Source: a phage
NCBI GenBank assembly: GCA_024682255.1
Contig: GCA_024682255.1_4716.1
Length of the DNA stretch: 64,000 nucleotides
Strand: one strand, 5' to 3'
A model generated the notes under the pieces. That model searched no databases. It saw only the letters and a list, made by a program, of their open reading frames with translations, and was not told the DNA's origin. The position numbers and the translations under genes were made by a program. Of the stretch, positions 4,659-51,936 are shown piece after piece. Positions within the stretch are counted from its first letter, which is position 1; every line of letters starts with the position of its first letter.

Positions 4659-4690
4659 CCCTCTCCCAACCCGTAAGGGAAGGGAGAGGG
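4659..4690 (-). terminator. Conserved 32-nt hairpin element, copy 1
   Basis: CCCTCTCCC-AACCCGTAAGGGAA-GGGAGAGGG; identical copy at 11827-11858, variant at 51905-51936. Confidence 0.6.
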
Positions 4691-4703
4691 AATATTAAAA
4701 TTG

Positions 4704-5159
4704 TCACTTTATATTGAACGCTTTTCGCAACGCATTAAGAACTAAATTAATTTCTTGCGCTTGTAACTTTAATCCCTGTGCTGAGCCATCAAACCCAAGC
4801 CAACGCCATACAAGGCATTTTACAGGTTTGTTGCTATCGTCGATACTATATGTGATCTCCAGTGTACTTTGATACGCGTAGTCACCATGTGTTTTCAGTG
4901 ACTGATTGAAATAAATATCAAATGCTTCTTCTATAGCCTGTTTACCGCGATCGTTACAAACAAACGCGATGTATCCGTCGGAATATCCAACTTCCTCTGG
5001 ATGTCCTTGGCAGGAGAAAATACTGATGGCGTCTTGCTGAGCAAGATTGAACACCGTGAAGAAATCACCAAATAAAGGATCGAGATTTAATGCGTTGTTA
5101 TCGATAAGGTTCCTTACCGCTTTACGGTATTCTCCCAGACTATTGTTCGCTGTAAACAT
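4704..5159 (-). CDS. Hypothetical protein (151 aa)
   Basis: ORF in minus-strand array followed by conserved hairpin. Confidence 0.6.
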   Translation of the reverse strand: MFTANNSLGEYRKAVRNLIDNNALNLDPLFGDFFTVFNLAQQDAISIFSCQGHPEEVGYSDGYIAFVCNDRGKQAIEEAFDIYFNQSLKTHGDYAYQSTLEITYSIDDSNKPVKCLVWRWLGFDGSAQGLKLQAQEINLVLNALRKAFNIK

Positions 5160-5169
5160 TCTTTTACCT

Positions 5170-5571
5170 TTAAATATCGTGGATAGCGGTGCCGTTTAGC
5201 CAACAATACAACTTAATGCGACACGGATAGCGATTCGTAGCCAAGAGCAGTTCATCGCGTAAACGCTGGTAGATTTCATCCTGGTGTTCGCGATCAATGG
5301 GGTAATCGGCCCAACATTCGATCATGACGTCACCATTCGTCAGAATCGTCGTACGCATCCTGTCCTGGATACGGCGGTCTTTCCCGGCATTAGGGAAATA
5401 CATTCCTTCGGTACGAATAAGGTCGCCGCAGGGCATGACTAACCATTCGTTCGTTTTGCCGGTATTCTTATAATCCATTACAGCTTGCATTGCGGTGTCA
5501 ACGCTAAAAGAAACATAATTCCAAACGGATGTCCAACGATAGATTGCGGGTTGTTCGAGTGTTTCGTTCAT
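5170..5571 (-). CDS. Hypothetical protein (133 aa)
   Basis: ORF in minus-strand array. Confidence 0.55.
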   Translation of the reverse strand: MNETLEQPAIYRWTSVWNYVSFSVDTAMQAVMDYKNTGKTNEWLVMPCGDLIRTEGMYFPNAGKDRRIQDRMRTTILTNGDVMIECWADYPIDREHQDEIYQRLRDELLLATNRYPCRIKLYCWLNGTAIHDI

Positions 5572-5785
5572 GGAGTGCTTGTCCTATTTTTATTTTCTGC
5601 ACAGGATAAATTCAACGGCATAAAGCCCTTCCCTGCCCTTATATGGGGCGGGAAGAGTTTATGACCGCAATGAGAATCTCTCACGACAAGCTCACGACGA
5701 TTATCGCATCACCCCGCGAGTGAGGGAGATCAGGATCACCTCCTACGTCGTAACGACAGTAATCCCGTTAACGCCACCTTAGGCA

Positions 5786-6412
5786 TTATGCAAAGCGACG
5801 CATGTAACCTGCCAGATAGTTACGCGTATCGAAGTAAGCAATTTCAGGAATTGCGATGTTAAGGTCGATAGCGCGGATTTCAACTTGGCGACGGCTTTCA
5901 TCATAGATCGCATCCATCAGACGCAGTACTGTCAGGAAAGCCATGCGGGTATGGTAGTCCAGCGGCATGTTGTCGATACCGCGATACAGATAACGGTTTG
6001 CGTTAAATGCCCCTTCGCTGTTATCTTTCCAGATCTTCAGAATATCAGCAAAGGCGGTGCGGAAAACCTCAGGATTATCCACATCCAGTAACGCACGGAA
6101 GGCAGACATTAAAGACCGCTGATGGCGGATCAACGACTGCGGCGTTTGCGGCATGGTTGGACCCATTTCTTCCGCATATTTCTGGAACGGGGCAACCAGG
6201 GTTGCGGCACGAGAAGCCACGATAGAAACAGCAGGCGATTCTTTCACCGCTGGTTTCGCAGGCTTTTCTTCAACAACGGTTTCCTTCTTCTCAACAGCGA
6301 CCGTTTCCGGCTGTGCTACAACATCACTAACCGGAGCATCTGCAACGGTGGTTTCTACCGCAGTAATCTCCTCGTCCATTTTTGCAGAACGTTGGTCTTT
6401 ATTCTTGCTCAT
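5786..6412 (-). CDS. Hypothetical protein (208 aa) with low-complexity acidic/Pro/Val-rich N-terminal half
   Basis: ORF; hairpin 5625-5656 about 130 nt downstream. Confidence 0.6.
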   Translation of the reverse strand: MSKNKDQRSAKMDEEITAVETTVADAPVSDVVAQPETVAVEKKETVVEEKPAKPAVKESPAVSIVASRAATLVAPFQKYAEEMGPTMPQTPQSLIRHQRSLMSAFRALLDVDNPEVFRTAFADILKIWKDNSEGAFNANRYLYRGIDNMPLDYHTRMAFLTVLRLMDAIYDESRRQVEIRAIDLNIAIPEIAYFDTRNYLAGYMRRFA

Positions 6413-6437
6413 GTTTATTTCCTTTTGTTTAACAAGG

Positions 6438-7739
6438 TTAACTAATATAAAGTTCAGGATCGTAAGGCGCTAACGATACACTGGCGTTATGCATTGCTTT
6501 CATCATAGTGTTCATGAAAACGTTGTTTACACCGGTGATCTCTGCCCCGATCGCATCTGGGGTTGGAGCCATCGCGTTACCGCAACAGGTAGCACAGTAT
6601 TCCAATGGGCCTGCTTTACAACGTTGAGGATCACGTAACTTGATGGTCTGTCCTTCCAAGGAAGCGAGTAATTCAGCATCAATAAGTTTAAGCGCCGCGC
6701 CGTCGATCATGTAACGGCCGACAAGCAGCTTATCTTTGATGTGGTCGCGGTTTACCGTGAACAGAATATGTTCGTGGGTACCACAGTCGTCCATCGTGAT
6801 TTTAAGGTTCTGTGTCGCACGTTGCGATTCTTTCGCCGTCTGTCCAGCTAAAGCGGTCAACGCACCACGTGAGAACGAACCAGCACGTGCGCTGTTGTTG
6901 TACTCCGCCCAATGGTCGACACGCATCCCTTCAGCCAGGCTGTGTGTGATAACGTTACGTTTACCGGGGTCAACGAAGTCGGCTTCAACCCCCATCATGA
7001 TGTGCGTTTTCTTTCGAGTATTACCGAAACTCTTGCCTGGGTTAATATAGAACCCTTCCGATTCATCGCCCTTAAAGGATTCCTTATCCATTTTGGTTAG
7101 CGTGGCTTCGAGTTTGATCAGTTCTTCAGGCGTGAACTTACCTTCCTCTTGTAAGCGTGCTAACTCTTTATCGCGATAGGCAATAATATCATCATCGACC
7201 GTTAACGCTTTATCGCTCATCGATGGGACAATTAAACGGTTGATAGCGGTTAACGCACTGATATTGTTGGTGAATTTCTTCACTTCGCTTGCGTACAGCG
7301 GGCCAATAGGACGTTCGTTAGGATCGGGTATTCCCTCTTCGGGATCGTCAGCTACGCGTGGCGCAATCAGTGACTCCAGTGTGCCGCTGGTCAACCGTCC
7401 TGCCTGGTATTCAATCTGAATACCGAAAGCATCATAAAGGACGTACATATTGAACAGAGCTTCGCCGAAGGTTGTGGTGGTTGTGTTCTTAACCGACGGT
7501 AGATCGCCAGGTGCGAGCTCCAATGGCTCCCAGAAACTCAACAAGGGTTTTGTTGGCTCGGTTTCCCATTGGTGTTCTTCACCGTCGATGGTAACCGTAA
7601 CGACGTTACCTTGACGACGTAATTTAGGCTGATACTTCTCAGCGCCGCCTTCCGTAAAAGCAAATGCGTCGTTAATCCATTCAAGATAACGGTAGTGCCC
7701 TTCACGCATCGCGTAAAGGAAATATTCACGAGGTGTCAT
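6438..7739 (-). CDS. Hypothetical protein (433 aa)
   Basis: Long ORF; Cys cluster CATCCGNAM near C-terminus; no recognised catalytic motif. Confidence 0.7.
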   Translation of the reverse strand: MTPREYFLYAMREGHYRYLEWINDAFAFTEGGAEKYQPKLRRQGNVVTVTIDGEEHQWETEPTKPLLSFWEPLELAPGDLPSVKNTTTTTFGEALFNMYVLYDAFGIQIEYQAGRLTSGTLESLIAPRVADDPEEGIPDPNERPIGPLYASEVKKFTNNISALTAINRLIVPSMSDKALTVDDDIIAYRDKELARLQEEGKFTPEELIKLEATLTKMDKESFKGDESEGFYINPGKSFGNTRKKTHIMMGVEADFVDPGKRNVITHSLAEGMRVDHWAEYNNSARAGSFSRGALTALAGQTAKESQRATQNLKITMDDCGTHEHILFTVNRDHIKDKLLVGRYMIDGAALKLIDAELLASLEGQTIKLRDPQRCKAGPLEYCATCCGNAMAPTPDAIGAEITGVNNVFMNTMMKAMHNASVSLAPYDPELYIS

Positions 7740-7752
7740 GTAACAACTCCTT

Positions 7753-8631
7753 TTAAACCCGGGTCAGGTCACCGTGACGTGAAACGAACTCTGATAACGC
7801 TCGGGTTGCTTCTTTGGATTCTTCAGCCATCGGGAAGTTTGCGGTAATAAGTTCTCGTAAGACAGGGACGAGTTCGTTATCTTCGAGATCAGAAGCTAAA
7901 GCGAATGCAATCAGTTCTTGGGTGTATGCATACGGTTGCTGACGTAATGCAGTAAGCTGATCCCGACACTGCGACATTAGCAGGTCCAGTGGAACCGCTA
8001 TCGTACCCCCTTCATCAATATACTGGCTGAACACCGGTGGGAACGCATCGCTGATGACACGAATACGTCGACGAATATGATCCGGAATCTGGACGTTTTC
8101 TTCGTCGACGACGTTTTCGCTATCTTTCTCCAGCTTCTTGGTCAGTACCTGTTGAATGCGTGGGAGTAAGCTTGAATGTACGAAACCGATTAATGGGGTT
8201 ACATTCGCAGCATCGACGCCGTAAATGTGACGCGTACATTCTGCTAACGCTTCAGCTGCGGTGTAGTCTTCATCTTCAACGATAGCAAGTAGAAAAGCGG
8301 TATCGTCGTGTGTTTCCAGGTCTAATAACGTAGACGCTAGCGCATGAAGATATTTCAGGCTATCCAGCGATAGCTGTCCTTCGTTAATTCGGATCCCGAA
8401 GGCAAGCAATTGTTGTTTATAAAGTTCGATACATCCGTTTGTTAAAATGATGTCTAATTCGTTTAAATCGTATTGTTCCCCAGCACCTGACAACATCGTA
8501 CTGCAGAACGTTTCCAGTTGTTCACATTTAAAATCTTGGTATAAACGATGCGTGCAGTGCTGTAACAGCGTACGCCTTGTTTCAGGGATCTTACCTTCTA
8601 ACAAAGCCAAGACGGAATCAATCATATCCAC
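7753..8631 (-). CDS. Hypothetical acidic protein (292 aa)
   Basis: Long ORF with GGAGTGG RBS; first gene of minus operon diverging from + cluster. Confidence 0.7.
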   Translation of the reverse strand: MDMIDSVLALLEGKIPETRRTLLQHCTHRLYQDFKCEQLETFCSTMLSGAGEQYDLNELDIILTNGCIELYKQQLLAFGIRINEGQLSLDSLKYLHALASTLLDLETHDDTAFLLAIVEDEDYTAAEALAECTRHIYGVDAANVTPLIGFVHSSLLPRIQQVLTKKLEKDSENVVDEENVQIPDHIRRRIRVISDAFPPVFSQYIDEGGTIAVPLDLLMSQCRDQLTALRQQPYAYTQELIAFALASDLEDNELVPVLRELITANFPMAEESKEATRALSEFVSRHGDLTRV

Positions 8632-8721
8632 TCCGATGCGGTAAATGTCTACTAGCTCTCATAATCTATTGAAGAAACTACCAGCTTACGCCAACTTAGA
8701 TTAATCAGGAGTAACCATCCC

Positions 8722-9195
8722 ATGCCAGTTTCATCCAAACCAAGAAAAAAATCCGTAGGAAACCCTAAAGCTCAGGAAACAACAGCAATTCGTTGGGACG
8801 AGTTACGTGAACCTATCGAAAACTGCGAATTGTTATTAGGTACCCTGGGTGCGGCTATTTACCAAGCGACGCAGCCCTGTCGTTTACGATTAACCCAAAA
8901 CAAACGTGATGAGTTCGTTGCGTTATCAACAAGCACGAATAAAGATCTGACCGAACTTCAAACCGAATTGACGACGATCAAGAACTCCATTACGCCGATG
9001 TACGGTAAAGAAGTTGATGAACAAAGTATTCTGTTACAGTACAACTACGGGATGTCGTTAATGAACATCCTGGAACGCGCATCCGATATTCTGCGTCCTG
9101 ACGTTGCACGCCTGAGCCAACTGCGTGTTGAAGGGATGGAGAACCAGATCCGATTCGCTAACAGCGTTAAATCTCAAGGAGCCACCGAAGCATGA
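8722..9195 (+). CDS. Hypothetical protein (157 aa)
   Basis: ORF with AGGAG RBS; stop overlaps next start (ATGA). Confidence 0.65.
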   Translation: MPVSSKPRKKSVGNPKAQETTAIRWDELREPIENCELLLGTLGAAIYQATQPCRLRLTQNKRDEFVALSTSTNKDLTELQTELTTIKNSITPMYGKEVDEQSILLQYNYGMSLMNILERASDILRPDVARLSQLRVEGMENQIRFANSVKSQGATEA

Positions 9196-10877
9196 GCGAA
9201 CAAGAAAAAGAAGTCGTGACGAATCAGGAAGCCGTTGAGCGTTCAGAGTCGTCTGTTGAAACAACGATTCCGGCAAGTTCCGAGCCTGTTGGTTCCGTAC
9301 AGCAGGAAAGTAAAGACGAAGTCAACACTACTAAAGAAGATGTAGTGGCTCCAGAAGCAACCCGTGAAGAAGAACCGTCACATCCACCGCTAATCGATTT
9401 CTCGAAGGCGACGATACGTTTCCAATGCGAAGACATTCGTCCTAAGAGTCCGAAGAAAACAAAACGTCAGCCGTTGGTGTTACCGTTATATTCTCCGCGT
9501 GTGCAGACAACGTATTACCGGGAATACATCAACGAAGCAATGGATACCGTGCAAGCCATTGTCGCTCAACGCGGTAAACCGACAGACGAACAGTTTGATA
9601 AATTCAGTAAAGCGGTGGTGCAATCGGTTGCTGATGGACAATATCATCCGCGTGGTCCAGCTCACGATCGCGCGTTGGAACGTAAAGGCAGTCAGTGGAC
9701 TAACGTACCCGTAGACTCATCGGGTGTTGGTCGCGTTATTCCTGGCATTCCGCAACCGAACCATATTCCTGATGATGTCGAAGCGCCGCTGACAGGAACC
9801 GATGCGATCTATTTTGCTATCCGTAATACGAAATCAGGCGCACCTGCGGTAATGCCGTTATGGCATAGCGGTATTAAGCTGCAGTTCAATCCGCCGTCAA
9901 ATGAACGTGTTGCAATTATGCACGAACGTATTGCACGCGATAAAATCCTGGGTGGTCGTGATAGCACCGGTTTCCTGTTTTCGGCAACCTCGATTATCAC
10001 CATGAAGCACGCAATCGAATTAGCGTTAGAATGCTGTTACATGGCCAACGTACCGAACCTGGATATCCAGCGTTTGAAAGACATTATTCCGGTTACCGAT
10101 GTTCCGGCGTTGTTGTTGAACGTGCTGGTAACCATGTATCCGTACGGGTATCCTTACGTACAGACCTGCTATCAGAATCCAGAAACCTGCGACTATCGTG
10201 TCGAAGATACCGTAAGCTTTGCGAAGCTCTATCAAGTTGACAACAGCGCAATTACCAAACGTATGCGACAGATCATGACCGAAGGTCCGGTCATGACAGA
10301 TGAACTTTTGCGTGAGTATGCGAACGAGCTGGGTGAAACGAACTCCCGTACGCTGGATCTGTCCGACAACGGTTCTGTTATCATTGAACTCGAAGTACCG
10401 AAGATCTCACGACAAATCGCCATGGGTGAACGTTGGTTAAGCGATACGCTGGAAGATCTGCGTGATATTCTATCGCGTCCGTCGATGACCGAAGAAGAGC
10501 GTGATCGTGTTATTCGTGAACGTCAGTTCTATAGCTGGATGCGTCAGTATGATGCGTGGATCAAATCGATGCATGTGTCGGTAAACGGTACCATGCGTCG
10601 TGTAAGCGATGCAGATACGGCAACGGTATTAGCACAGCTGTCTCGTGACAGCGACCTTCGTGAACGCTATATCGATGGGCTGATGCAATTCATCGGTGAT
10701 TCGACGATTGCGCTCGCAGCGATGCCTGCCTGGAAATGTCCGAAATGTAATGCCGATATTGCTGACAATCTGCGTGACCAGAAATACTACGATCTGATTG
10801 CTTTGGATGTACCCCAGCTTTTTTTTACCCTAAACTCCGTCCAATCTCTTCAGGAGGGGATGGACGCGGTATTCTAA
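9192..10877 (+). CDS. Hypothetical protein (561 aa); zero-frame product of a candidate frameshift gene
   Basis: Long ORF translationally coupled to upstream gene; U7 slippery run 10820-10826 near 3' end. Confidence 0.75.
   Translation: MSEQEKEVVTNQEAVERSESSVETTIPASSEPVGSVQQESKDEVNTTKEDVVAPEATREEEPSHPPLIDFSKATIRFQCEDIRPKSPKKTKRQPLVLPLYSPRVQTTYYREYINEAMDTVQAIVAQRGKPTDEQFDKFSKAVVQSVADGQYHPRGPAHDRALERKGSQWTNVPVDSSGVGRVIPGIPQPNHIPDDVEAPLTGTDAIYFAIRNTKSGAPAVMPLWHSGIKLQFNPPSNERVAIMHERIARDKILGGRDSTGFLFSATSIITMKHAIELALECCYMANVPNLDIQRLKDIIPVTDVPALLLNVLVTMYPYGYPYVQTCYQNPETCDYRVEDTVSFAKLYQVDNSAITKRMRQIMTEGPVMTDELLREYANELGETNSRTLDLSDNGSVIIELEVPKISRQIAMGERWLSDTLEDLRDILSRPSMTEEERDRVIRERQFYSWMRQYDAWIKSMHVSVNGTMRRVSDADTATVLAQLSRDSDLRERYIDGLMQFIGDSTIALAAMPAWKCPKCNADIADNLRDQKYYDLIALDVPQLFFTLNSVQSLQEGMDAVF
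10820..10826 (+). other. Candidate -1 programmed ribosomal frameshift site (T TTT TTT)
   Basis: Heptamer in X_XXY_YYZ register of the 561-aa frame; -1 frame open 10778-11299. Confidence 0.35.
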
Positions 10878-10939
10878 TCGATCCGCGATACGGGTTACAT
10901 GACGGACAACTTGTTCGTAATGATGAAAAAATCTGGGAA

Positions 10940-11299
10940 TTGCTGTTAGCGCGTAAAGGCGATGGTGGCATGAAACTGAACATCGAAATGGGTATAGCGT
11001 ACGATACCATGTTTGGTTTGTACGACCGCGTTAACGAATGGACACCGTTGAAATGGGTGGCTCAGCATCCCGCTGAAGATCCCTGGGACAGATTAGGGAT
11101 TAAACCCTTAATCGAGGATTATGTTCGATTCGGTATTAAAGAGTTCATGACGCTGGATGCGTTTTTAAAAGCACCGTATCCTTACGCGCAAACGGTACTC
11201 AAAATCGCACAAGACGAACTGCGGAAACGTAGTGCGGTACTGGACGACGATGAGGACAAGTTACGACGAGAAGAAGAACGTTTACGAAACGGAAAATAA
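10940..11299 (+). CDS. Hypothetical protein (119 aa) or -1 frame extension of the 561-aa protein
   Basis: ORF track uses TTG start; frame is open upstream back to 10778 overlapping the 561-aa ORF end; internal ATG at 10968. Confidence 0.5.
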   Translation: MLLARKGDGGMKLNIEMGIAYDTMFGLYDRVNEWTPLKWVAQHPAEDPWDRLGIKPLIEDYVRFGIKEFMTLDAFLKAPYPYAQTVLKIAQDELRKRSAVLDDDEDKLRREEERLRNGK

Positions 11300-11300
11300 A

Positions 11301-11810
11301 ATGGCGAGATTTACCAGTTTGATTGGGTTGGATATTTGGGAAACACCGGCTGACGTTCGGGTTATTCCTGTTAACACCGTCGGTGTGATGGGACGTGGTC
11401 TTGCTAAGCAGGCAGCCGATCGTGTGCCCGGTCTTCTTGAAGCGTACCGTAAGCAATGTCAAGATGGGTTTAAGGTGGGAGAAGTCGTGTCATATCAACA
11501 CGGTGATAACGATCAACTCACTTACGTGCTGTTTCCATCAAAATCGGATTGGCGTGAAAGAACACGACGCGAGTATATCGTTAACGGTTTACTGGCGTTA
11601 AAAGCGTGGTTATTGGAGCTTCAGTTCGAAAGAGACGGCTTCTCATATCGGCGTCCGGCTGAACCGCTGATCGTTGCAATTCCTCCGGTTGGTTCTGGCT
11701 GCGGTAATATCGGCTACGGACAATCCGAAACAATCCAGCCTCAATGGGTACGCGCACAAATCAAACAGTATCTTGCCACCGTGCCAAACGTTCATTTCTA
11801 CTTGTTCTAA
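11301..11810 (+). CDS. Macro domain protein, TARG1/OARD1-like (putative ADP-ribose processing enzyme)
   Basis: Motifs VNTVGVMGRGLA and IPPVGSGCGNIGYG match macrodomain ADP-ribose binding loops; ATG at 11301 one nt after upstream stop. Confidence 0.55.
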   Translation: MARFTSLIGLDIWETPADVRVIPVNTVGVMGRGLAKQAADRVPGLLEAYRKQCQDGFKVGEVVSYQHGDNDQLTYVLFPSKSDWRERTRREYIVNGLLALKAWLLELQFERDGFSYRRPAEPLIVAIPPVGSGCGNIGYGQSETIQPQWVRAQIKQYLATVPNVHFYLF

Positions 11811-11826
11811 TGTAAAGGTAACATAA

Positions 11827-11858
11827 CCCTCTCCCAACCCGTAAGGGAAGGGAGAGGG
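11827..11858. terminator. Conserved 32-nt hairpin element, copy 2, between convergent genes
   Basis: Identical to 4659-4690; flanked by CATAA and CTTATGCTGTTATGCTGTT. Confidence 0.65.
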
Positions 11859-11875
11859 CTTATGCTGTTATGCTG

Positions 11876-12250
11876 TTAATCTTCGTTCCAGATGGCATCT
11901 TCCGGTGGAACAATAGGATCTTTCTTCGGCATTGATGGCACTTCATGACGATGCTTACGGAACTGCCTATCAATAACCTCACGAAGCCGGTACGCATCAA
12001 CCCATGTTGATTTATTGAACAGCTCCAACGTCACAGTTAGCCGTGTTCTCGACATTGAATAGCTTTTCTTTGCAATCAAATTGGGATAATTCAGTTGAGC
12101 GAACCACGCACGTATTTGTGCTTCGGTAAAAGCGATGCTGTAATAACTAAGTTTACCGTCATTAAAATCGTGCGCGTGGGTGTAGCGTCCAGCGTAACGC
12201 CAGACAAGATGCACATTCAGATCGATCCATGGTGGGGTGGTATCAGCCAT
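11876..12250 (-). CDS. Hypothetical protein (124 aa)
   Basis: ORF at end of minus operon, followed by bidirectional hairpin. Confidence 0.55.
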   Translation of the reverse strand: MADTTPPWIDLNVHLVWRYAGRYTHAHDFNDGKLSYYSIAFTEAQIRAWFAQLNYPNLIAKKSYSMSRTRLTVTLELFNKSTWVDAYRLREVIDRQFRKHRHEVPSMPKKDPIVPPEDAIWNED

Positions 12251-12259
12251 GTGTTACCC

Positions 12260-12829: not shown

Positions 12830-12850
12830 GTAGACACCACCTCCAACGTG

Positions 12851-15463: not shown

Positions 15464-15485
15464 TAAAAACCTCAGCCCTTTAGAA

Positions 15486-16127: not shown

Positions 16128-16304
16128 GGTCTTGTCCTATACGTTGGTGGTTGAAGTGGCGGATATCGGATGCATGCTGGACGTGAACCCTATAGTTCGC
16201 GCTATCGCCATTTTCTACCTCGTTTCTATTCTCAAAAAGGAAATTTCATACGATGACGCCATAGCAGCTCCTCCTTCCCTGACGGGTTGGAGGAGCATAC
16301 TTAA

Positions 16305-21777: not shown

Positions 21778-21890
21778 AAGCGCACCCTCCTCCAACAATC
21801 AAATTAAAATATATAACTCCTCGAAACCAGAGTGCGATTCGAGGTAAGCGTAAACAGTCCAGACGACCGCATAAAATTCCGCGCATATTG

Positions 21891-21922
21891 CCCCTCTATC
21901 TCGACAAAGCGAGATAGAGGGG
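21891..21922 (-). terminator. Long hairpin (13-bp stem) downstream of the 1198-aa gene
   Basis: CCCCTCTATCTCG-ACAAAG-CGAGATAGAGGGG; two further hairpins at 21816-21842 and 21960-21977. Confidence 0.5.
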
Positions 21923-21982
21923 AGGATAATACGATTATGCTGCCGCACTCCAAAGTTCATGGGGCGGTAACCGCCCCATCGG

Positions 21983-26423: not shown

Positions 26424-26507
26424 GCTGACCTCATAGATGATCGTTGATAGGAAAGAGACCTAATTCATACCATGGGAACCTTAAAAAAAAAAAGAAAAAT
26501 AGGAAAA

Positions 26508-26537
26508 CGGTGTTCATCCCTAAAAGGATGAACACCG
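26508..26537 (-). terminator. Strong rho-independent terminator (minus strand)
   Basis: 12-bp stem CGGTGTTCATCC/GGATGAACACCG followed on minus strand by long T-tract (A-rich 26483-26507 on + strand). Confidence 0.8.
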
Positions 26538-26557
26538 CGTACCGTTATATCGAACGA

Positions 26558-28786: not shown

Positions 28787-28840
28787 GGTGATTTCCTTCT
28801 TTATTAGGATGATTACATTTAGTCAGTTTAACAGCATAAA

Positions 28841-28865
28841 CCCTTCCTGCCTTACGCAGGAAGGG
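28841..28865 (-). terminator. Terminator hairpin downstream of endolysin gene
   Basis: CCCTTCCTGC-CTTAC-GCAGGAAGGG preceded by CATAAA. Confidence 0.6.
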
Positions 28866-29377: not shown

Positions 29378-29629
29378 CTTAATAACCTCACGATAAGGTG
29401 CTGTCCACTGGCGTCTTGATAACGCATCCCATCATCGGGTTGTTCTATTCAGCGGGCAGCAGGTTAGCGTCAGATGTTTGCCCGACATCCACGACAGAAA
29501 TAAGCGGTACTGAAATTACGGTCTCCTCTGGTTTGGCAATAAACATAACGTTGGATAACAGAACCCATTTCCCGCATCCAACGCGGTAAAGGTGTACATC
29601 GTTTGAATTCATATAGTTTCTCAAAGATG

Positions 29630-31712: not shown

Positions 31713-31772
31713 GATAAAGATCCTCGTTGAAATAAAATCGGTATAAAGGCCCCCCCATTTAGGGGGACCTGA

Positions 31773-35678: not shown

Positions 35679-35701
35679 TTTGTTTCCTTTTATCGGCATA
35701 A

Positions 35702-35722
35702 GCCCTCCCATGCCGGGAGGGT
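35702..35722 (-). terminator. Terminator-like hairpin
   Basis: GCCCTCCC-ATGCC-GGGAGGGT preceded by CATAA. Confidence 0.55.
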
Positions 35723-39103: not shown

Positions 39104-41839
<2,736 letters not shown>

Positions 41840-41874
41840 GATGGGAGGGACACAGGCAATACGCTTTTATTTCG

Positions 41875-44162: not shown

Positions 44163-44176
44163 GTAAATTATCCTCG

Positions 44177-44556: not shown

Positions 44557-44633
44557 GTTTCACCTCGTTCGGTTGTTGTCTGATCTCATACCTTTACTTA
44601 AGCGTATCCCCCGTCATTAAGACGGGGTGCTTA

Positions 44634-45008: not shown

Positions 45009-45014
45009 TGCGTC

Positions 45015-45221: not shown

Positions 45222-45242
45222 TTTAATTATTGGTATTAAAGA

Positions 45243-45728
45243 TTAAAGCAGGATCTGCGGACAGCAGCATGATTCGTAACCACCTTCATGTGGTAACGTA
45301 TTGCTGGTGTCAGGCCAAACGAGCTGAATACCTGCAACTTTTTTACCATATCGAGCGAAAGCCGCTATCGCATACACTTCGTTGAAGGATTCAATATCCT
45401 CGATTTCGCGTACGTCAAGACGCAAGGTTTCACCCGTACCTTTCAAAGTCAGATTACCATCGAACGCGCCTAACGGGATGGTCTTTGCCTTCACCATGAA
45501 GTTACCCAGTTTGTTGATTGCTGAACCGAGCGCCGGACAGTAACCGGATACGAAGATTTCCGGCATTCCGTGTTCGGTTAGACCAACAGTATACATAAAG
45601 CCAGGCTCGTCGCTTCCCTCATCAGGAGCGACACTGATAATAGCCCATTGCTTTTTCTCGATATATTCTTCGATAAAATCGTCCATTTTTGAAAAATTGT
45701 TTTCATTAAGTTTAACTGTGTTACTCAT
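45243..45728 (-). CDS. DUF4262-like protein (161 aa)
   Basis: Motifs FMYTVGLTEHGMPEIFVSG and QLVWPD recalled as characteristic of DUF4262; unverified. Confidence 0.5.
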   Translation of the reverse strand: MSNTVKLNENNFSKMDDFIEEYIEKKQWAIISVAPDEGSDEPGFMYTVGLTEHGMPEIFVSGYCPALGSAINKLGNFMVKAKTIPLGAFDGNLTLKGTGETLRLDVREIEDIESFNEVYAIAAFARYGKKVAGIQLVWPDTSNTLPHEGGYESCCCPQILL

Positions 45729-46014
45729 GTTCTTTATCCTTTAAAGCGTTTTCTAACCAGCGGACATAACTTTCACGATAAAGGTGAATATGTCTTTTAC
45801 CGTCGCGAAAGTTAGGGTCAATAAGATGAATCGCAGCATGGGTTGAAGTCATCGCATGCTGTAAATGTTTTCGTGTTAATCGCCCAAGTTTTACCCAGCG
45901 TTGAATATACCGCGCGTCTGCCGCTAAACAGGTACGTTCGTCGATGAAAGGTACCAATACCTGAACGATACTACCGTAATACACCATCGAACTGTTGAAC
46001 ATCTGCGTCTCCAT
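45721..46014 (-). CDS. Hypothetical protein (97 aa)
   Basis: ORF with 8-nt overlap to downstream gene. Confidence 0.5.
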   Translation of the reverse strand: METQMFNSSMVYYGSIVQVLVPFIDERTCLAADARYIQRWVKLGRLTRKHLQHAMTSTHAAIHLIDPNFRDGKRHIHLYRESYVRWLENALKDKEHE

Positions 46015-46032
46015 GCAAATGAATGGGGTGGA

Positions 46033-46341
46033 TTAGTGAAGAATTACTGTTTGCGACCCTTTCTCGTATTCGGTAAGTAACTCGTCGTACCGACGATCGA
46101 CCGCCTTGATCGCATTATCGATCTCTGTCGTGTCTGATACAACAGATCGTTTCGCTTCCAGTCGATATACTAACGCATCACGCATACCCTCGGCTGCAGC
46201 GAGTTCGCAAGTTGCTTGATGTTTATTATCCGAAAAGACGAAGAATGGTTTGTTCTCTTCATCAGCCAGGAAGTAGTCACGAATCGCAACCAACCTTTCT
46301 TCTGGAACCAGTTCACAATTGTTTTCGTTCATTTTCATCAT
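46033..46341 (-). CDS. Hypothetical protein (102 aa)
   Basis: ORF in minus operon. Confidence 0.5.
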   Translation of the reverse strand: MMKMNENNCELVPEERLVAIRDYFLADEENKPFFVFSDNKHQATCELAAAEGMRDALVYRLEAKRSVVSDTTEIDNAIKAVDRRYDELLTEYEKGSQTVILH

Positions 46342-46346
46342 CTCTC

Positions 46347-46673
46347 TTAAAGTTTTAACGTATTGACGCCGCTTATAAAGGCGTTGATTTCATTGTCGAT
46401 GTCGCCAGTTTGCTCGATAATCTTCTCCACCATCAATCTTGGTTTGTTATAAGCAATGCTTACAGCATCGGGACCATTTCCATACATGCTCGCGACGTAA
46501 ATTCGAAGTTCTTTTAAACGATCGAGCAACAACTGCGCGATTTCCAGAACTTCTTCTGTGGCGGTCTGTGTGTTGCATTCGCGTAACTTGTGCTCTAACA
46601 GCGAAGTCGCAGCATCGAGCATGGATGTGTATTTACGATAGTTATAAATATCAATTATAGCTGTCTGATTCAT
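46347..46673 (-). CDS. Hypothetical protein (108 aa)
   Basis: ORF in minus operon. Confidence 0.5.
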   Translation of the reverse strand: MNQTAIIDIYNYRKYTSMLDAATSLLEHKLRECNTQTATEEVLEIAQLLLDRLKELRIYVASMYGNGPDAVSIAYNKPRLMVEKIIEQTGDIDNEINAFISGVNTLKL

Positions 46674-46684
46674 ACATACGCTAC

Positions 46685-47053
46685 TTATTTGTTAGGGTCT
46701 ATTAGCGTCAGATACAACGTATACAGATCGGTAATCCCTTTTCTAATATACCGTGCTTGAAGACGTCTCATATCCCGGGTTTTATAAGGGAAATCAGGAT
46801 CCATATACAAACGATAATTCGCTTTCATTAAAACCAACACATCCTCTATAAACCGAAGATATTGCTTGATAGCTGGATCTGTATCATACGCGTAATGGCG
46901 CGCCCCACCGAATCCCAATTCCCTGTTCAGCTCTCTTAGTCGTATCGATACTAATCCGAAATCAACAAGCTCGACGAGCTGACGTAAATTACGATTAAAC
47001 CAATATCGATACCAAAATGACTGTATACCCCAACCAGTTCTATTTAACTTCAT
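46685..47053 (-). CDS. Hypothetical protein (122 aa)
   Basis: ORF in minus operon. Confidence 0.5.
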   Translation of the reverse strand: MKLNRTGWGIQSFWYRYWFNRNLRQLVELVDFGLVSIRLRELNRELGFGGARHYAYDTDPAIKQYLRFIEDVLVLMKANYRLYMDPDFPYKTRDMRRLQARYIRKGITDLYTLYLTLIDPNK

Positions 47054-47684
47054 TGATACCTTCTATTAGTTGTACAGCAACTTCTTTTTCGGTGCTATAA
47101 AAGAACTTGCGGTGGAACTGAACAAGAAGCTTTTCGAATTTACATTGAACGATCTTTTTGCGTTCGATGTGACCCAGGGAGAGCAAAGCACCCATGCAAC
47201 GTACTGCTTGTTCGAGAACCTGTTTCGCGGTATCGTGATCGTCCGGTAACGGTAAATCTTCCTCGTCATCTTTAGCGATAAGACGTCTAATGATGTTATC
47301 GATACGTATCTCATCACCGTTAATAAAAGCCCCCTTCTCCCACTCATCAAATCGTTGATGGATTCGACGTTGTAAGTTGGCCCTGTCTTCCATTAACTCT
47401 TTCAACTGTTTTTCTAGGTGGGATACGGTACGGCGGTCGGTATCAGTGAAGTTTTCCGATTCTTTGTACCACCAATCATTACGCGCTTGTAAGTCATTGA
47501 TGCGAGATATTATCCGACGACACTCGTTAACAAACGCATCACCGTTCGATAGCTCCGTACCGAAATAGCATTTGTATTTATAACGCATAACACGGATTAA
47601 ACGTTTCGCTAGAAAACCTTGTTTCTCCAGTTTCTTTTTCAGTTGGGTGTATTTCTCTTCTTTTGTTTCCGCGATATCTTTCAT
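47040..47684 (-). CDS. Hypothetical protein (214 aa), charged helical
   Basis: ORF; 4-nt overlap with upstream gene. Confidence 0.6.
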   Translation of the reverse strand: MKDIAETKEEKYTQLKKKLEKQGFLAKRLIRVMRYKYKCYFGTELSNGDAFVNECRRIISRINDLQARNDWWYKESENFTDTDRRTVSHLEKQLKELMEDRANLQRRIHQRFDEWEKGAFINGDEIRIDNIIRRLIAKDDEEDLPLPDDHDTAKQVLEQAVRCMGALLSLGHIERKKIVQCKFEKLLVQFHRKFFYSTEKEVAVQLIEGINEVK

Positions 47685-48031
47685 GCCATATTCTCCGTTA
47701 TATGCTTTAAACTGTTACGTATACTTTTCAATCGGTGGTTAAATCCGGAACGATAACATTTCCGTACAACCCTTGGCGCTCGCGCTTTATTCGCCTGATG
47801 AAGCTGTTCATTCACCTGCGACGCTATACGTAAACGCTCTAATAAAGACCTCAACCGAACGACAACCAACGGCTGTTCTTTCACCTTCTCTAGTTTGAGT
47901 AAAGAGTCAATATGAAACTTTATATCGATAATCTGATTCCTGTTTTTGCGGTACTGATGAATATACCAACATCGACGAAAATAGGCGATGTTAAGCATAG
48001 GGTAGATCCTCTTCAACGCTATCTCCAACAA
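47681..48031 (-). CDS. Hypothetical basic protein (116 aa)
   Basis: ORF in minus operon. Confidence 0.5.
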   Translation of the reverse strand: MLEIALKRIYPMLNIAYFRRCWYIHQYRKNRNQIIDIKFHIDSLLKLEKVKEQPLVVVRLRSLLERLRIASQVNEQLHQANKARAPRVVRKCYRSGFNHRLKSIRNSLKHITENMA

Positions 48032-48216
48032 TACATCGGATTAGGTGCTTTATGGCATTTATAAATACTTACTTTCTTCTGTCTGCCTTTACCCGGGCCT
48101 CGTTTAATACGTTTGTTATAAACACGATCCAAATATCGATCAACGATAAATCTAGATAAATACACCGGATCGATATATTCTAGTGTACCTGCTTCTGTCA
48201 CTTCGAGGCATTGCAT
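48019..48216 (-). CDS. Hypothetical small basic protein (65 aa)
   Basis: ORF in minus operon. Confidence 0.4.
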   Translation of the reverse strand: MQCLEVTEAGTLEYIDPVYLSRFIVDRYLDRVYNKRIKRGPGKGRQKKVSIYKCHKAPNPMYCWR

Positions 48217-48241
48217 GCGTAACCTCTCTTTCCTCTAAAAG

Positions 48242-48445
48242 TCAGTCCAACATAAGCCACGGCATCGCTTTCGCGATAGAATCCACCGCAGCATTTGCGA
48301 TCCTCCGTTCAGTCGTTGGTACCACATGCGCAACGAACCGTTTCCCTTTATTGCAACCTTTCTTGTGTTTCCCTTTGACTAAACGAACACCAATCATGTC
48401 ATTGATAACATGATTTAGTATGTGGCGCTGTAGAGAATTAATCAT
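48242..48445 (-). CDS. Hypothetical small basic protein (about 67 aa)
   Basis: ORF; ATG 48445. Confidence 0.4.
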   Translation of the reverse strand: MINSLQRHILNHVINDMIGVRLVKGKHKKGCNKGKRFVAHVVPTTERRIANAAVDSIAKAMPWLMLD

Positions 48446-48614
48446 CACTTTTACTCCAGGTAGAGAAGATCCTCGGTTTTAGTTCTATCTGTCCGCATAT
48501 CCAGGTGTATCTCCATTTACCTTTACGAGGACCTTTCTTATTTTTAACACCTATCAGAATACGATAGGGATATGACCAAGCCATTCTAACCTCCTAAAAT
48601 AAATCTCGATATTC

Positions 48615-48941
48615 TTAATGCAGTTGCTTCTTAAAACCTAATTTAAGAAGCGTCATTCTCTTGTCGATGGTATCTAATGCTTCCAGCAAGGATTCACGCT
48701 GTTCTTTCGTAAGCATATCGACGCGGAGACGTTCGTTAATTTCCGCTTTAAGCTGTATAGGAAGAGTTTGTGTAAGTATGCTATCAGCCTCCATCTCGTA
48801 ACTATTTTTCGGTATGGGTAATGCTTCAGTAACACCAGTGAGATAAAAACCGATAGTGGTTACTCGTTCATCCATTGCTTCTAGCAGTTCAGAACTTACT
48901 TCATCCACGATAGTCCTCCGTATTAGGGTGGGCGTACCCAC
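48615..48941 (-). CDS. Hypothetical protein (108 aa)
   Basis: ORF downstream of thymidylate synthase gene; hairpin 48925-48945. Confidence 0.5.
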   Translation of the reverse strand: MGTPTLIRRTIVDEVSSELLEAMDERVTTIGFYLTGVTEALPIPKNSYEMEADSILTQTLPIQLKAEINERLRVDMLTKEQRESLLEALDTIDKRMTLLKLGFKKQLH

Positions 48942-48955
48942 CCCCAGTTGTTAAT

Positions 48956-49975
48956 TTACACCGCCACCTTAGCCTTGATAGCCGGATGTGATTGATATCC
49001 GACGAACACGAAGTCTTCGTAACGGTAATCCGTAATACTTTCCGGTTTACGTACGATCGTTAGCTTCGGTAACGGATACGGTTCACGGCTGAGCTGCTCT
49101 TTAACCTGTTCGAAGTGGTTGTGATAGATGTGGCAGTCTCCACCCGTCCACACGAACTCGCCAACATCCATATTCAGCTGTTGGGCAAGCATGTGCGTTA
49201 GCAACGAATATGATGCGATGTTGAACGGTGTTCCGAGTAGCACGTCCTGTGATCTCGCGGTCAACATACACGACAAGGCACGCGTCGGTACGTTATGTGC
49301 ATTCAACCAAAGTTCCGTTTCACTATGTCGTACATCATCCGTAACCCACTGAGTTCTTAGTACGTCGTTACGTTGGACATAATCAACGCGTTCATCGATC
49401 GTGAGTTTGTGGGTATAGAACTGATAGAAACTGTGGCATGCGGGAAGCGCCATATCGTCTAAATCACCTACGTTCCACGCGCTAACGATGATCCGTCGAG
49501 AATCAGGATCTTCTTTAAGCTGGCGCATCACGTTTGCAATCTGATCGTGAGGTTTAACATACAAGAGATGTTTGACCATACCGGCGTCAACAACACCGCA
49601 ATACTCATAGCCGCGTTGCATCAACTCACGAGTACGTTCTGTATCGTGCGGAACAACCACTTTGTAGTCGATCCATTCCCGCCATTGTTTGCCGTAAATT
49701 GGTCCTAGATTCCCTTCTTCGTCAGCCCATTCATTCCAAATACGAACACCGTTATCTTGAAGATAAGCAACGTTTGTGTCACCGTTAAGAAACCAGAGCA
49801 GTTCGTGGATAACGCTCTTAAGGTGAATCTTCTTGGTGGTTACCAGCGGGAATCCTTTCTTCAAGTCAAAACGCATCTGACGTCCGAATACGGAACGGGT
49901 CCCGGTGCCTGTACGATCAGCTTTATCGCGACCGTTATCCATGATGTCTTGCAAAAGGTCCAAATACTGTTTCAT
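48956..49975 (-). CDS. thyA: Thymidylate synthase (ThyA family) with two insertions
   Basis: Motifs [41 protein letters not shown], catalytic Cys in [23 protein letters not shown]; 339 aa versus 264 in E. coli. Confidence 0.9.
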
Positions 49976-50175
49976 TTTAATCCTCTAAGTGTTTCAAGTA
50001 GTTCCTGAAATTTATAACGATATTTAGAATCACGTAACGTGTAACAGCAACCAAGTAACACGTTATACGCGTAATCAACTTGTAAACCACGAACCTTCGG
50101 ATCTGACGAAAGATTCAATTGTACATCATCAAAAATCCACGCTTCAACGTTCCTCTTGTGTTCCTTCGTTAACAT
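49972..50175 (-). CDS. Hypothetical small protein (about 67 aa)
   Basis: ORF 49972-50184; ATG 50175 with GAGGTG RBS; overlaps thyA start by 4 nt. Confidence 0.5.
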
Positions 50176-50306
50176 CGTTTTCACCTCGTCGTAAAAGTAA
50201 ATAGAGTTTTGTCGAGACGCCCTAATTACTTACAACGTCGGTTCCCCCGGCTTCAGAGAATTCTCAAAATCCGTTAGTTTTGATAGACAGGGTAAGACGG
50301 CATAAA

Positions 50307-50327
50307 AGCCTCCCGTAACGGGAGGCT
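50307..50327 (-). terminator. Terminator-like hairpin
   Basis: AGCCTCCCG-TAA-CGGGAGGCT preceded by CATAAA. Confidence 0.55.
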
Positions 50328-50339
50328 CCATTAATCAGT

Positions 50340-50888
50340 TTATTTCACAAGAACAGCGAATTCGAGAACGTAAATATTCTCGTCATCCATCGGATTTGTC
50401 GTGGTATAACCAACGAAACAATAACCCATATCCACGATAAATTCATTAAGTTTATCGATGGCCGATGCCTGGATGCGATCGTCAACAGACAAACAGCATT
50501 TACGGGTTATGTTCCGCCCACGAGGAACGCCAGCTAACACGCACAGGAAATGCACAATCCGGTTATTGGTTGCGAACTGCGCGTAATCATTGTAGCGTTT
50601 AAGGTCTTTCATCGTAGACTCTACCGTCATACGGCGACCGGGCGACACGTACTCAGAATAAGAATAAGCTGTGATTGTACGACGGTCTTCAGTTAAGTAA
50701 GTGTTCCCTTCGGGGTAGTAGTCTACGCCATCGCCATCAGCATCCACCACGGTTACAACAGGTGCACCGTACTCGTTACGATCAAAGTAAACTTTGCTCT
50801 TTTCCGAAATAGGAACGATAGTGCAAGGTTTTGCGTTGTTCTCATCTGGAAGATCGTAACCGCTCATCATTTTCAAAAACATAGACAT
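50340..50888 (-). CDS. Paralog family protein A (182 aa)
   Basis: Homologous along its length to 50975-51508 (shared NNAKP, TITAYSYS, conserved C-terminal half). Confidence 0.65.
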   Translation of the reverse strand: MSMFLKMMSGYDLPDENNAKPCTIVPISEKSKVYFDRNEYGAPVVTVVDADGDGVDYYPEGNTYLTEDRRTITAYSYSEYVSPGRRMTVESTMKDLKRYNDYAQFATNNRIVHFLCVLAGVPRGRNITRKCCLSVDDRIQASAIDKLNEFIVDMGYCFVGYTTTNPMDDENIYVLEFAVLVK

Positions 50889-50974
50889 AATAGAACCTCA
50901 TGATAATAGATAATAGAAATGATAGATAGTACAACAAATTGAGGGGGTATTATCCCACCCCCTCGTAGGGATTA

Positions 50975-51508
50975 CTACTTAACGATCGCGATGATTTTAC
51001 CGGCCGCACCGGCGTAATATGCCGTTAATTCACCAGTAAACAACTCTTGTAAAAGACGATTTACGTGACTAACAAAGTTAGGATTGTCTGATTTTACAAA
51101 CTCGATATTGCGCGTTTGTTTTATATCACGATCGATTAAACGGATTTCTAACAACGCACAAATAAGGCGATCGTCGAGTTTACCACTCGTATCCAACACT
51201 TCCCCATACGTCGTAGCACGGACGTCCGCATACATACGGTCAACATCATCCTTCCCAAAACCACAGGAATAGGCGTACGTTGCGATGGTATTACCGTTGT
51301 CCATCACGTAAACGTTACCGCCCGGGTAATCGATAAATCGTTGATCCTTATCGCCATGAGCGACGAACTCCAGTGTCGGTCTACCCATCGAATCACGGTT
51401 GAATTCAATTGTGGTCAAGCGATCTGGTACCACATGCAACGTAAACGGTTTTGCATTGTTACGATCGCTAGTATCACAGTTAGCCATTACTTTTACAATA
51501 ACACTCAT
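50975..51508 (-). CDS. Paralog family protein B (177 aa)
   Basis: Homologous to 50340-50888. Confidence 0.65.
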   Translation of the reverse strand: MSVIVKVMANCDTSDRNNAKPFTLHVVPDRLTTIEFNRDSMGRPTLEFVAHGDKDQRFIDYPGGNVYVMDNGNTIATYAYSCGFGKDDVDRMYADVRATTYGEVLDTSGKLDDRLICALLEIRLIDRDIKQTRNIEFVKSDNPNFVSHVNRLLQELFTGELTAYYAGAAGKIIAIVK

Positions 51509-51582
51509 GTTTTATTCCTTAGTAGTCCTAGTAGTAGTATTGAGGAATTTCACCTCATTAGATAGTCTAATTTAGTAATGTT

Positions 51583-51915
51583 TTACTGAAACAAGACATT
51601 AAATTCGACGAGATACCCATCGGATCTATCGCCGCGATATCTGTTGCAGAAAACACCGAATTTCATCAAGAACTCGCATAACTCTTCGGCTTTGTATAAC
51701 GGAATACGATTTTCGTCGAGCAGAGGACACTTATGGCTAACCCGCTCCGACGAATCAACGCAACACAAATAAAGAAGGAATCGAACAATAGCTCGGTTCT
51801 TAGTGAAGCTCTCGAATTCACCCGCGGTTCTGAACTCATCGAGGAGCTTTGTCGTTTTCTTCAATCGTTCACGATCAAGCATGTTAACCTCAATACGAAC
51901 ATAACCCTCCTCCAA
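51583..51915 (-). CDS. Paralog family protein C (110 aa; C-terminal domain only)
   Basis: Aligns with C-terminal halves of paralogs A and B (NR.IV.FL..L, C.L.D..RI, Y..EF.VL). Confidence 0.6.
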   Translation of the reverse strand: MEEGYVRIEVNMLDRERLKKTTKLLDEFRTAGEFESFTKNRAIVRFLLYLCCVDSSERVSHKCPLLDENRIPLYKAEELCEFLMKFGVFCNRYRGDRSDGYLVEFNVLFQ

Positions 51916-51936
51916 CCCATCAGGGAAGGAGGAGGG
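51905..51936 (-). terminator. Conserved 32-nt hairpin element, copy 3 (variant)
   Basis: CCCTCCTCC-AACCCATCAGGGAA-GGAGGAGGG with the same CATAA and ATATGCTGTTATTCTGTT flanks as copies 1-2. Confidence 0.6.

Follow-up and report, generated by a model that had tools for sequence, protein, structure and literature searches.

What are the GC-rich, CATAA-flanked hairpins that recur in the phage contig GCA_024682255.1_4716.1, and what does one of them, a 32-nucleotide (nt) element present three times, do there? A sequence-only reading of the 64,000-nt stretch of DNA analysed here (the window) had proposed that they may be terminators, RNA-stability or processing elements, or recombination hotspots that shuffle gene cassettes. 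The comparisons described below make it probable that a Goslar-like chimallivirus uses these elements to end transcription without a protein factor, and that they are terminators of a type first mapped in phage phiKZ; they probably also act as protective stem-loops at mRNA 3' ends. The observation is real, but it is most likely explained in large part by this known terminator type.

The hairpin family and its reading strand

Megablast matches the window to Escherichia phage vB_EcoM_Goslar, with 95.5% identity over positions 4000-12500 and 93.8% over 1-25000. Goslar (Goslarvirus, Chimalliviridae) is a nucleus-forming jumbo phage, and an RNA polymerase beta subunit gene is annotated within the region matching it. 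The window is distinct from Goslar and also from two Goslar-like IMG/VR contigs, termed A and B here. The minus strand holds ~93% of the window genes, on which the Goslar annotation and our own open reading frame (ORF) model agree, and the exceptions are two plus-strand gene blocks at 8722-11810 and 60344-62425. Because nearly all genes lie on the minus strand, the hairpins have to be read on that strand, and CATAA is then the reverse complement of a downstream TTATG. The sense-strand form of the element is a hairpin, 0-3 nt and then TATG-Y-Y-G (Y, pyrimidine), written generically as hairpin+TTATGCTGT.

The three copies of the 32-nt element were found where the sequence-only reading had placed them. 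Copies 1 and 2 (4659-4690 and 11827-11858) are identical at 32/32 nt, and copy 3 (51905-51936) is a compensated variant with CCCTCTCCC/GGGAGAGGG vs. CCCTCCTCC/GGAGGAGGG arms and two further loop-side changes. A fourth relative is located at 16267-16296 and has an inverted inner hairpin. The claim that the three copies share both flanks holds for CATAA and only in part for the other flank, since copy 1 lacks TATGCTGTT on the plus strand and bears it on the minus strand (TTCTATGCTGTT), while copies 2 and 3 carry this box on both strands. CATAA and TATGCTGTT are in fact one box on opposite strands, which was missed in the earlier reading of the antisense strand. The same antisense reading accounts for most of the GNRA loops described earlier; on the sense strand, loops such as UUCG and UUAC are present. 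Where at least eight other CATAA-flanked hairpins had been counted, ten were found (at 1697, 5626, 16267, 21891, 28841, 29549, 35703, 41823, 50305 and 58352). Together with the copies at 4659, 11827 and 51905 they form a curated family of 13, to which two near-members at 631 and 31747 are added. The folding free energies (dG) of the 13 hairpins range from -14.6 to -33.9 kcal/mol, with z-scores of -2.0 to -6.6. The elements, with dG in kcal/mol and two canonical terminators for contrast, are the following.

Member at 1697: 1687..1727, minus strand, candidate terminator; hairpin 1697-1727 (CCCTTCCC...GGGAAGGG) then CTATATGTTG; dG -28.4, z -5.3; TATG follows the stem on the plus strand too; stop codon of gene 1743-2138 15 nt upstream
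Member at 4659: 4649..4690, minus strand, copy 1 of the 32-nt extended hairpin; hairpin 4659-4690 then TTCTATGCTG, 13 nt past the stop codon of gene 4704-5159; dG -25.9, z -5.5
Member at 5626: 5616..5657, minus strand, candidate terminator; hairpin 5626-5657 then CTTTATGCCG; 1 mismatch to the 3' half of the phiKZ consensus
Member at 11827: 11819..11877, both strands, copy 2 of the 32-nt hairpin (11827-11858), between convergent genes (11810/11876); tails TTATG on the minus strand and CTTATGCTGTTATGCTGTT on the plus strand
Member at 16267: 16257..16296, minus strand, relative of the 32-nt element with inverted inner stem-loop; hairpin 16267-16296 then TGCTATGGCG, 8 nt past the stop codon of gene 16305-16811; dG -25.4, z -4.7
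Member at 21891: 21881..21979, minus strand, tandem pair; hairpin 21959-21979 (3 nt past the stop codon of gene 21983-25579), then family hairpin 21891-21922 and CAATATGCGC
Member at 28841: 28832..28865, minus strand, candidate terminator; CCCTTCCTGC-GTAAG-GCAGGAAGGG then TTTATGCTG; z -6.4; 1 mismatch to the consensus half
Member at 29549: 29541..29583, minus strand, weakest member, with a less GC-rich stem; then TTATGTTT; dG -17.9, z -2.3; sequence unchanged in Goslar and contig A
Member at 35703: 35694..35721, minus strand, candidate terminator; CCCTCCC-GGCAT-GGGAGGG then CTTATGCCG; z -2.0
Member at 41823: 41815..41858, minus strand, candidate terminator with a long imperfect hairpin; then TTATGCTG; dG -33.9, z -5.9; 16 nt past the stop codon of gene 41875-42495
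Member at 50305: 50298..50329, minus strand, candidate terminator; GCCTCCCG-TTA-CGGGAGGC then TTTTATGCCGT; the one site in the window that matches the 30-nt phiKZ consensus in full
Member at 51905: 51897..51945, both strands, copy 3 of the 32-nt hairpin (51905-51936), compensated allele; tails TTATG on the minus strand and AATATGCTG on the plus strand; dG -32, z -6.1
Member at 58352: 58344..58371, minus strand, candidate terminator; GCCCTCCC-UUCG-GGGAGGGC then TTATGCTG; 1 mismatch to the consensus half
Near-member at 631: 631..662, minus strand, very stable; CCCCTCCC...GGGGAGGGG, 6 nt past a stop codon; dG -26.6; tail CTTCGCATG, not TTATG
Near-member at 31747: 31739..31770, minus strand; hairpin then TTATACCG (TTAT without G); 3 mismatches to the consensus half
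Contrast: 4010..4035, minus strand, canonical intrinsic terminator; hairpin 4018-4035, GGTGGGG-UUCG-CCCCACC then TTTTTT; annotated as a terminator in Goslar
Contrast: 26485..26538, minus strand, canonical hairpin (26507-26538) with a long T-rich tract

All 13 elements lie downstream of a gene in the sense orientation, mostly in intergenic DNA, and the nine one-sided members are without exception sense-oriented (binomial P = 0.002). In 10/13 the stem begins 5-17 nt past the stop codon. The distance from the hairpin to the next start codon, on the other hand, is variable (~3 to 172 nt). Copy 2, at 11827-11858, is read as a two-sided terminator because the box follows the hairpin on both strands, and phiKZ sites between convergent genes are two-sided too. 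In the Goslar record, six putative terminators are marked in this stretch; two of them belong to the family, the orthologues of 11827 and 50305 having been independently annotated "putative transcriptional terminator" by the depositors.

Some details of individual sites can be recorded here. The box of copy 2 is tandemly doubled (TTATGCTGTTATGCTGTT). At two-sided elements, including 11860-11877 on the plus strand, the reverse-complemented tail (TAACAGCATAA) gives a TAA stop codon to the gene from the other side. The hairpin 5626-5657 stands at the end of a 214-nt intergenic region running from a stop codon (5572-5785, minus strand), which is strongly structured (z = -4.2), differs little from its Goslar counterpart and shows compensatory changes in the first hairpin; this region may be a small RNA or a structured 3' untranslated region (UTR).

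The tail box, the phiKZ motif and stem evolution

The tail was examined in an unbiased test in which every position was scanned for closed hairpins and the 4-mers in the next 8 nt were counted. TATG is the most enriched 4-mer after stable hairpins on the minus strand (15 vs. 2.4 expected, Poisson P = 4e-8) and also ranks first on the plus strand (4 vs. 1.1 expected). When phiKZ is treated in the same way, TATG ranks second on both strands (6 vs. 1.7 and 5 vs. 0.8). Among the 13 members, TATG is found in 13/13 and is followed by Y in 12/13, Y in 12/13 and G in 9/13, so that the tail usually reads UUAUGYYG; by its sequence this profile is the KYYG box of phiKZ. Stem and box are considered one unit because the spacing from stem to TATG is fixed at 0-3 nt. 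A pyrimidine-rich 5' arm is combined with a purine-rich 3' arm (CCYCCC/GGGRGG type) in 12 of the 13 members.

In phiKZ, 61 predicted intrinsic terminators obtained from ONT-cappable-seq 3' ends share the motif BCCYCCCCHWWDGGGRRGGBYTTATKYYGT (Putzeys et al. 2024, Microlife, PMC10914365). The authors described it as a distinct stem-loop followed by a 5'-TTAT-3' region (PMC10914365). The ungapped 3' half of this consensus was searched with up to three mismatches, and 100 shuffles were made of each sequence. The window contains 13 matches vs. 2.48 expected, a count reached by 0/100 shuffles; 11 of the 13 are on the minus strand and both plus-strand matches are at two-sided sites. Goslar (35 kb) has 7 matches vs. 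0.98 expected (0/100 shuffles), and phiKZ (50 kb), the positive control, has 15 vs. 1.70 (0/100 shuffles). No enrichment was found in 50 kb of the Salmonella chimallivirus SPN3US, the negative control (3 vs. 2.37; 47/100 shuffles). Our own hairpin scan of phiKZ recovers sites of the motif, for example TCCCCTCC-ATAT-GGAGGGGA-TTTATGCTGTT.

Other search strategies were set aside. As a fixed pattern, the full 30-nt consensus matches a single site in the window because loop and stem lengths vary, and it was dropped for the 3' half. Matches of the half-consensus inside genes (14220-14237 and 22425-22442) lack a real hairpin and are accounted for by the ~2.5 matches expected by chance. A covariance model built from phiKZ instances was abandoned since the MAFFT alignment lost the stem register. 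Rfam and tRNA scans gave no match at the hairpins, and no Rfam family exists for these elements. Apart from the hairpins, TATG is about twice as common on the sense as on the antisense strand (221 vs. 114 in 1-8600 and 11880-60100), which places it third in asymmetry among 120 4-mer pairs; neither count reaches the Markov expectation and the asymmetry may be only codon bias.

Covariation among paralogues that had been picked as hairpins would be circular and, therefore, orthologues were compared among four genomes (the window, Goslar and contigs A and B). The stems show six two-sided compensated pair changes and five one-sided changes that preserve pairing, four of which form G·U pairs only in the sense RNA and are mismatched on the other strand. 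No stem change breaks pairing on both strands, while loop and unpaired positions have accumulated 30 changes. TATG is kept in ~33/34 orthologue instances by our own reading of the alignments, and the two Y positions toggle between C and T. In the Goslar orthologue of 21891-21922, two A>G changes lead to U·G pairs in the sense RNA only. The element 28832..28865 has the loop GTAAG in the window and its exact reverse complement CTTAC in Goslar; a compensatory T-A>C-G change is seen in contig A. Orthologues of 50298..50329 combine a loop flip with a G·U change, and the basal pair of 58344..58371 passes through the series G-C > G·U > A-U across Goslar and contig A. The G·U changes, which pair only in the sense RNA, argue for selection on RNA. 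Compensatory and sense-only G·U changes, free loops and a near-invariant TATG point to a terminator working at the RNA level. More distant relatives (L024-L027, 35-47% protein identity) gave just two convincing hairpin+TTATG sites, both in L024, and are uninformative.

Termination and the rival explanations

The option of terminators draws its support from the match to a motif mapped at phiKZ 3' ends, from the sense position after genes, from the two-sided site at 11827 and from the evolution of the stems. Given this structure, strand, gene placement, RNA-level conservation and identity to the phiKZ motif, termination may be envisaged as follows. A GC-rich hairpin with a pyrimidine-rich 5' arm and a purine-rich 3' arm would form in the sense transcript a few nt past the stop codon, and the place of the U-tract would be taken by UAUG-Y-Y-G 0-3 nt after the hairpin. 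With the short UUAU, the RNA:DNA hybrid would be weak. At 4-7 and 7-10 nt past the stem, the conserved G residues would provide pyrimidine-then-G pause steps, the second G being at the usual release distance and the G-rich 3' arm ~10 nt upstream, and the phage's own multisubunit RNA polymerases would stop at these steps. Pyrimidine-then-G steps resemble the elemental pause rule of multisubunit polymerases. Where the box is present on both strands (CATAA...TTATG), polymerases would be stopped from both directions, and the 32-nt element would be the extended-stem, presumably stronger version.

Several points weigh against this account. The U-tract is poor, with 2-6 T in the first 8 nt past the stem and no more than four in 9/13 members. 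As the sequence-only reading had noticed, a proper U-tract is missing, and 0/8 family hairpins in 1-20000 and 44001-64000 pass a scan for canonical hairpins with a T-run (5 or more T in 8 nt, beginning 0-2 nt past the stem); the calls of that scan are themselves at chance in the two stretches (24 vs. 19.9 and 15 vs. 18.4). Three of the 13 members are 46-128 nt from the stop codon. A literature search gave no transcript 3'-end data for Goslar-like phages, and we infer termination from homology to phiKZ; short-read RNA-seq of Goslar has been published without a reported terminator analysis, and the paper on enhanced crosslinking and immunoprecipitation (eCLIP) of ChmC reports no link to a hairpin or motif. 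The conserved G and YYG are unexplained except by the pause-site account, which we infer. The tail also holds the exact late-promoter core of phiKZ, TATG, and may leave room for a second function. Finally, SPN3US is another chimallivirus and uses ordinary T-tracts, so the TTATG tail is not a family-wide requirement.

If polymerases read through these sites and the hairpins served RNA processing or stability only, 3' ends would arise by trimming to the hairpin or by cleavage in the AU-rich tail, and the hairpin would protect the mRNA. Very stable hairpins at gene 3' ends and a tail that amounts to a weak U-tract agree with this, and ONT 3' ends do not separate termination from processing (PMC10914365). 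Trimming, however, leaves a conserved 7-9 nt box at fixed spacing downstream of the stem unexplained, related terminators of phage 201phi2-1 block read-through between two reporter genes in uninfected cells (PMC11512511), and the two-sidedness at convergent genes fits a stopping polymerase, which makes processing alone rather improbable. The idea that the elements are dispersed palindromic DNA repeats (REP- or PeSL-like, where PeSL stands for "promoter-early stem-loop"), mainly serving recombination or cassette shuffling, is more doubtful still, although local recombination at them is clear. A degenerate pattern of the 32-nt element has at least seven copies in each of Goslar, contig A and contig B and none elsewhere in IMG/VR, and the near-identical copies adjoin unrelated genes. 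Of the two stem alleles (CCCTCTCCC/GGGAGAGGG and CCCTCCTCC/GGAGGAGGG), one is found at site 11827 in the window and Goslar and the other at the orthologous position in contigs A and B, and the changes between them are compensated. A minimum of five sites (28841, 51905, 50305 and two more) carry loops or inner hairpins that are exact reverse complements between orthologues, among them the inner hairpin of copy 3 in contig A; by their sequence these reversals are palindrome-mediated flips or conversions. The 500-nt gene 4704-5159 is absent from Goslar, where a different hairpin is joined to the same TTCTATGCTG tail, and the indel junction is inside the 3' arm of copy 1 (4659-4690). Further junctions abut hairpins 1697-1727 (junctions at 1745 and 1727 relative to Goslar and contig A) and 28472-28506. 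Local recombination of this kind stands, but the synteny comparison that the sequence-only reading had suggested does not bear out hotspots: of 12 gene-scale indel events relative to Goslar and contig A, five have a junction at most 20 nt from a hairpin vs. ~4.8 expected in random intergenic DNA (~0.4 per event). The hairpins recombine locally and are not demonstrably cassette-shuffling hotspots. In addition, the G·U-only substitutions pair in sense RNA and are mismatched in DNA or antisense RNA, the orientation of the elements tracks gene direction, and the 32-nt copies are mostly at orthologous positions between genomes, which suggests that the element is not mobile; recombination between palindromes is better seen as a side effect. 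Gene duplication was also considered as the source of the flank shared by copies 2 and 3 and was rejected, as the proteins beside the two copies show no relationship to each other (E = 0.46) and lack Pfam domains.

The TATG tail raises the question of why a terminator should end in a late-promoter core, and here a dual terminator-promoter module is the likeliest of the rivals. TATG after the hairpin would be a late promoter of the non-virion RNA polymerase (nvRNAP), starting at G, which ends one unit and restarts the next, and two-sided elements would fire outward on both sides. In phiKZ, TATG with G at +1 is necessary for late transcription by the nvRNAP (PMC4666361) and the beta-like subunit reads TATG on the non-template strand (PMC12809450). 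In the window, the G is invariant in 13/13 members and kept in the orthologues as given above, and in ~7/12 cases the next start codon is 17-50 nt downstream, a plausible 5' UTR. The elements are nevertheless anchored to the upstream stop codon and the stem, at a variable distance from the downstream start, and between convergent genes the box flanks the hairpin on either side, a place at which a promoter would yield only antisense RNA. Stem adjacency is strict (0-3 nt) and YYG is conserved, whereas phiKZ late promoters are conserved only at TATG (PMC4666361) and the phiKZ promoter P119L has no upstream hairpin. The phiKZ terminator consensus permits T at the position of G (PMC10914365), and at copy 1 a separate early-promoter-like box is located ~40 nt further downstream. 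A dual module is therefore judged unlikely. It is a little less likely again that TATG, instead of being a degenerate U-tract, is read by the same non-template-strand pocket of the beta-like subunit as in the late promoter, with either a promoter-like hold and release of the elongating polymerase at T(-3)A(-2)T(-1)G(+1) or an immediate restart. If so, hold and release would be a sequence-specific, U-tract-independent form of termination, restart would link successive transcription units, and promoter core and terminator tail would be expected to co-vary across chimallivirus lineages. TATG is absent from the text of the two papers describing the terminator motif (PMC10914365, PMC11512511), and its identity with the promoter core is not discussed there. 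The last alternative treats the elements as translation signals, in which the GGGAGGG arm would serve as Shine-Dalgarno sequence for a start codon 4-6 nt downstream, namely the ATG of TTATG, that opens a small ORF or the next gene. GGAGG and ATG do have near-ideal spacing in most members. For the gene following 35703, the start annotated in Goslar aligns with this ATG, and at 1697 the ATG shares the reading frame of the gene that follows. Yet 11/13 of these ATGs open ORFs of just 4-55 codons, the Shine-Dalgarno-like arm is held in a stem of -14 to -34 kcal/mol, and the box is found on the antisense side and between convergent genes as well, so this explanation is hardly credible.

If the elements are terminators, Goslar-like phages, a main E. 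coli model for phage-nucleus biology, gain a usable map of transcription-unit ends. The family has 13 or more sites, and standard terminator predictors will miss those that are not annotated. A terminator of the phiKZ type (hairpin + UUAUGYYG) would be conserved between distantly related phages of different hosts; its conservation across hosts, together with its absence from another chimallivirus, points to a trait of particular phage polymerases and not of the host. The compact two-sided elements of 50-60 nt are candidate insulators for the engineering of these phages.

Neighbouring features and comparison with known systems

Further features have been observed around these elements. The small genes 1743-2138, 4704-5159 and 27956-28456 are present in the window and absent from Goslar or contig A. 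None of the three has a Pfam match, and they are thus regarded as accessory genes of unknown function. A repeated box, TTTCACGGCTATATTACTTA(G/C)GTGA, is found on the minus strand at 32156-32180 and 60176-60200, with a degenerate copy at 4597-4621, 60-110 nt upstream of minus-strand genes; we take it to resemble the AT-rich early (virion-polymerase) promoter of phiKZ-like phages. Sites resembling sigma-70-type promoters are ~2-fold depleted relative to shuffles (13 vs. 30.5 in 1-20000 and 20 vs. 39.7 in 44001-64000), which fits a phage independent of the host polymerase. Two unrelated genes have in common a 33-nt cassette of 5' UTR, ribosome-binding site and start (GCAAYCAATCCAATATAAAAGGATGTCRAGATG, minus strand; 4484-4516 and 32088-32120, 94% identical), and a weaker third copy is at 28784-28816. 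Positions 1-280 on the plus strand hold a group I intron truncated by the window start (Rfam RF00028, 59.8 bits, E = 1e-12); in Goslar, an ORF for a NUMOD1/HNH homing endonuclease is located just upstream. Within the minus-strand gene 17269-21243, which encodes a tail-fibre repeat protein, 120-nt periodic repeats extend over 17930-19477, and the repeats of this gene form seven 300-nt registers that are 61-74% identical.

Repeated intergenic stem-loops are also known from T4-type phages, where PeSL cassettes flank variable genes. The window hairpins differ from these in showing no excess at cassette junctions and in having no recognisable promoter of their own. For the loop reversals, a precedent is offered by chloroplast spacers, in which hairpin-mediated minute inversions flip loops by recombination between the arms of a palindrome. 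The family has a GC-rich hairpin just past the gene in common with the canonical Rho-independent terminator, which is likewise bidirectional when its flanks are palindromic, but it has a UUAUGYYG tail and no U-tract; the two true canonical examples listed above show the difference within the same window. SPN3US (L030, examined over 100-150 kb) ends its genes with ordinary hairpins and T-tracts (TTTT enriched, 9 vs. 1.7) and without a TTATG tail, and the type of terminator tail therefore differs between chimallivirus lineages.

The late promoter of phiKZ has the core 5'-TATG-3' (Yakunina et al. 2015, PMC4666361; PMC12809450), which is identical to the window tail in all four bases, and the invariant G corresponds to the promoter start site. 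This promoter, however, needs no upstream hairpin and shows no conserved bases past TATG, while TATG in the window is tied to a hairpin, to YYG and to stop codons. In phage 201phi2-1, the commonest terminator motif resembles that of phiKZ, and longer stems terminate better in a reporter assay (PMC11512511). Its motif A and the "elongated hairpin" A+B place short-core and extended-stem types in one genome, the extended type being the stronger in reporters, and the 20-25-nt hairpins and the 32-nt element of the window, with its inner CCC-GNNA-GGG tier, form a parallel in stem type. A strong version in the form of the two-tier 32-nt hairpin would fit the better performance of longer stems in 201phi2-1. 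The closest known system is the phiKZ motif itself, in which the first arm is CCYCCC, the second arm is GGGRGG and TTAT(G)YYGT comes directly past the stem, and which is also placed after genes and two-sided at convergent genes. The window comes from an E. coli Goslarvirus that is no more than a distant relative of phiKZ, the G after TTAT is invariant in the window and G or T in phiKZ, and many window members have longer, two-tier stems. The phiKZ sites come from mapped 3' ends and those of the window are predicted from sequence.

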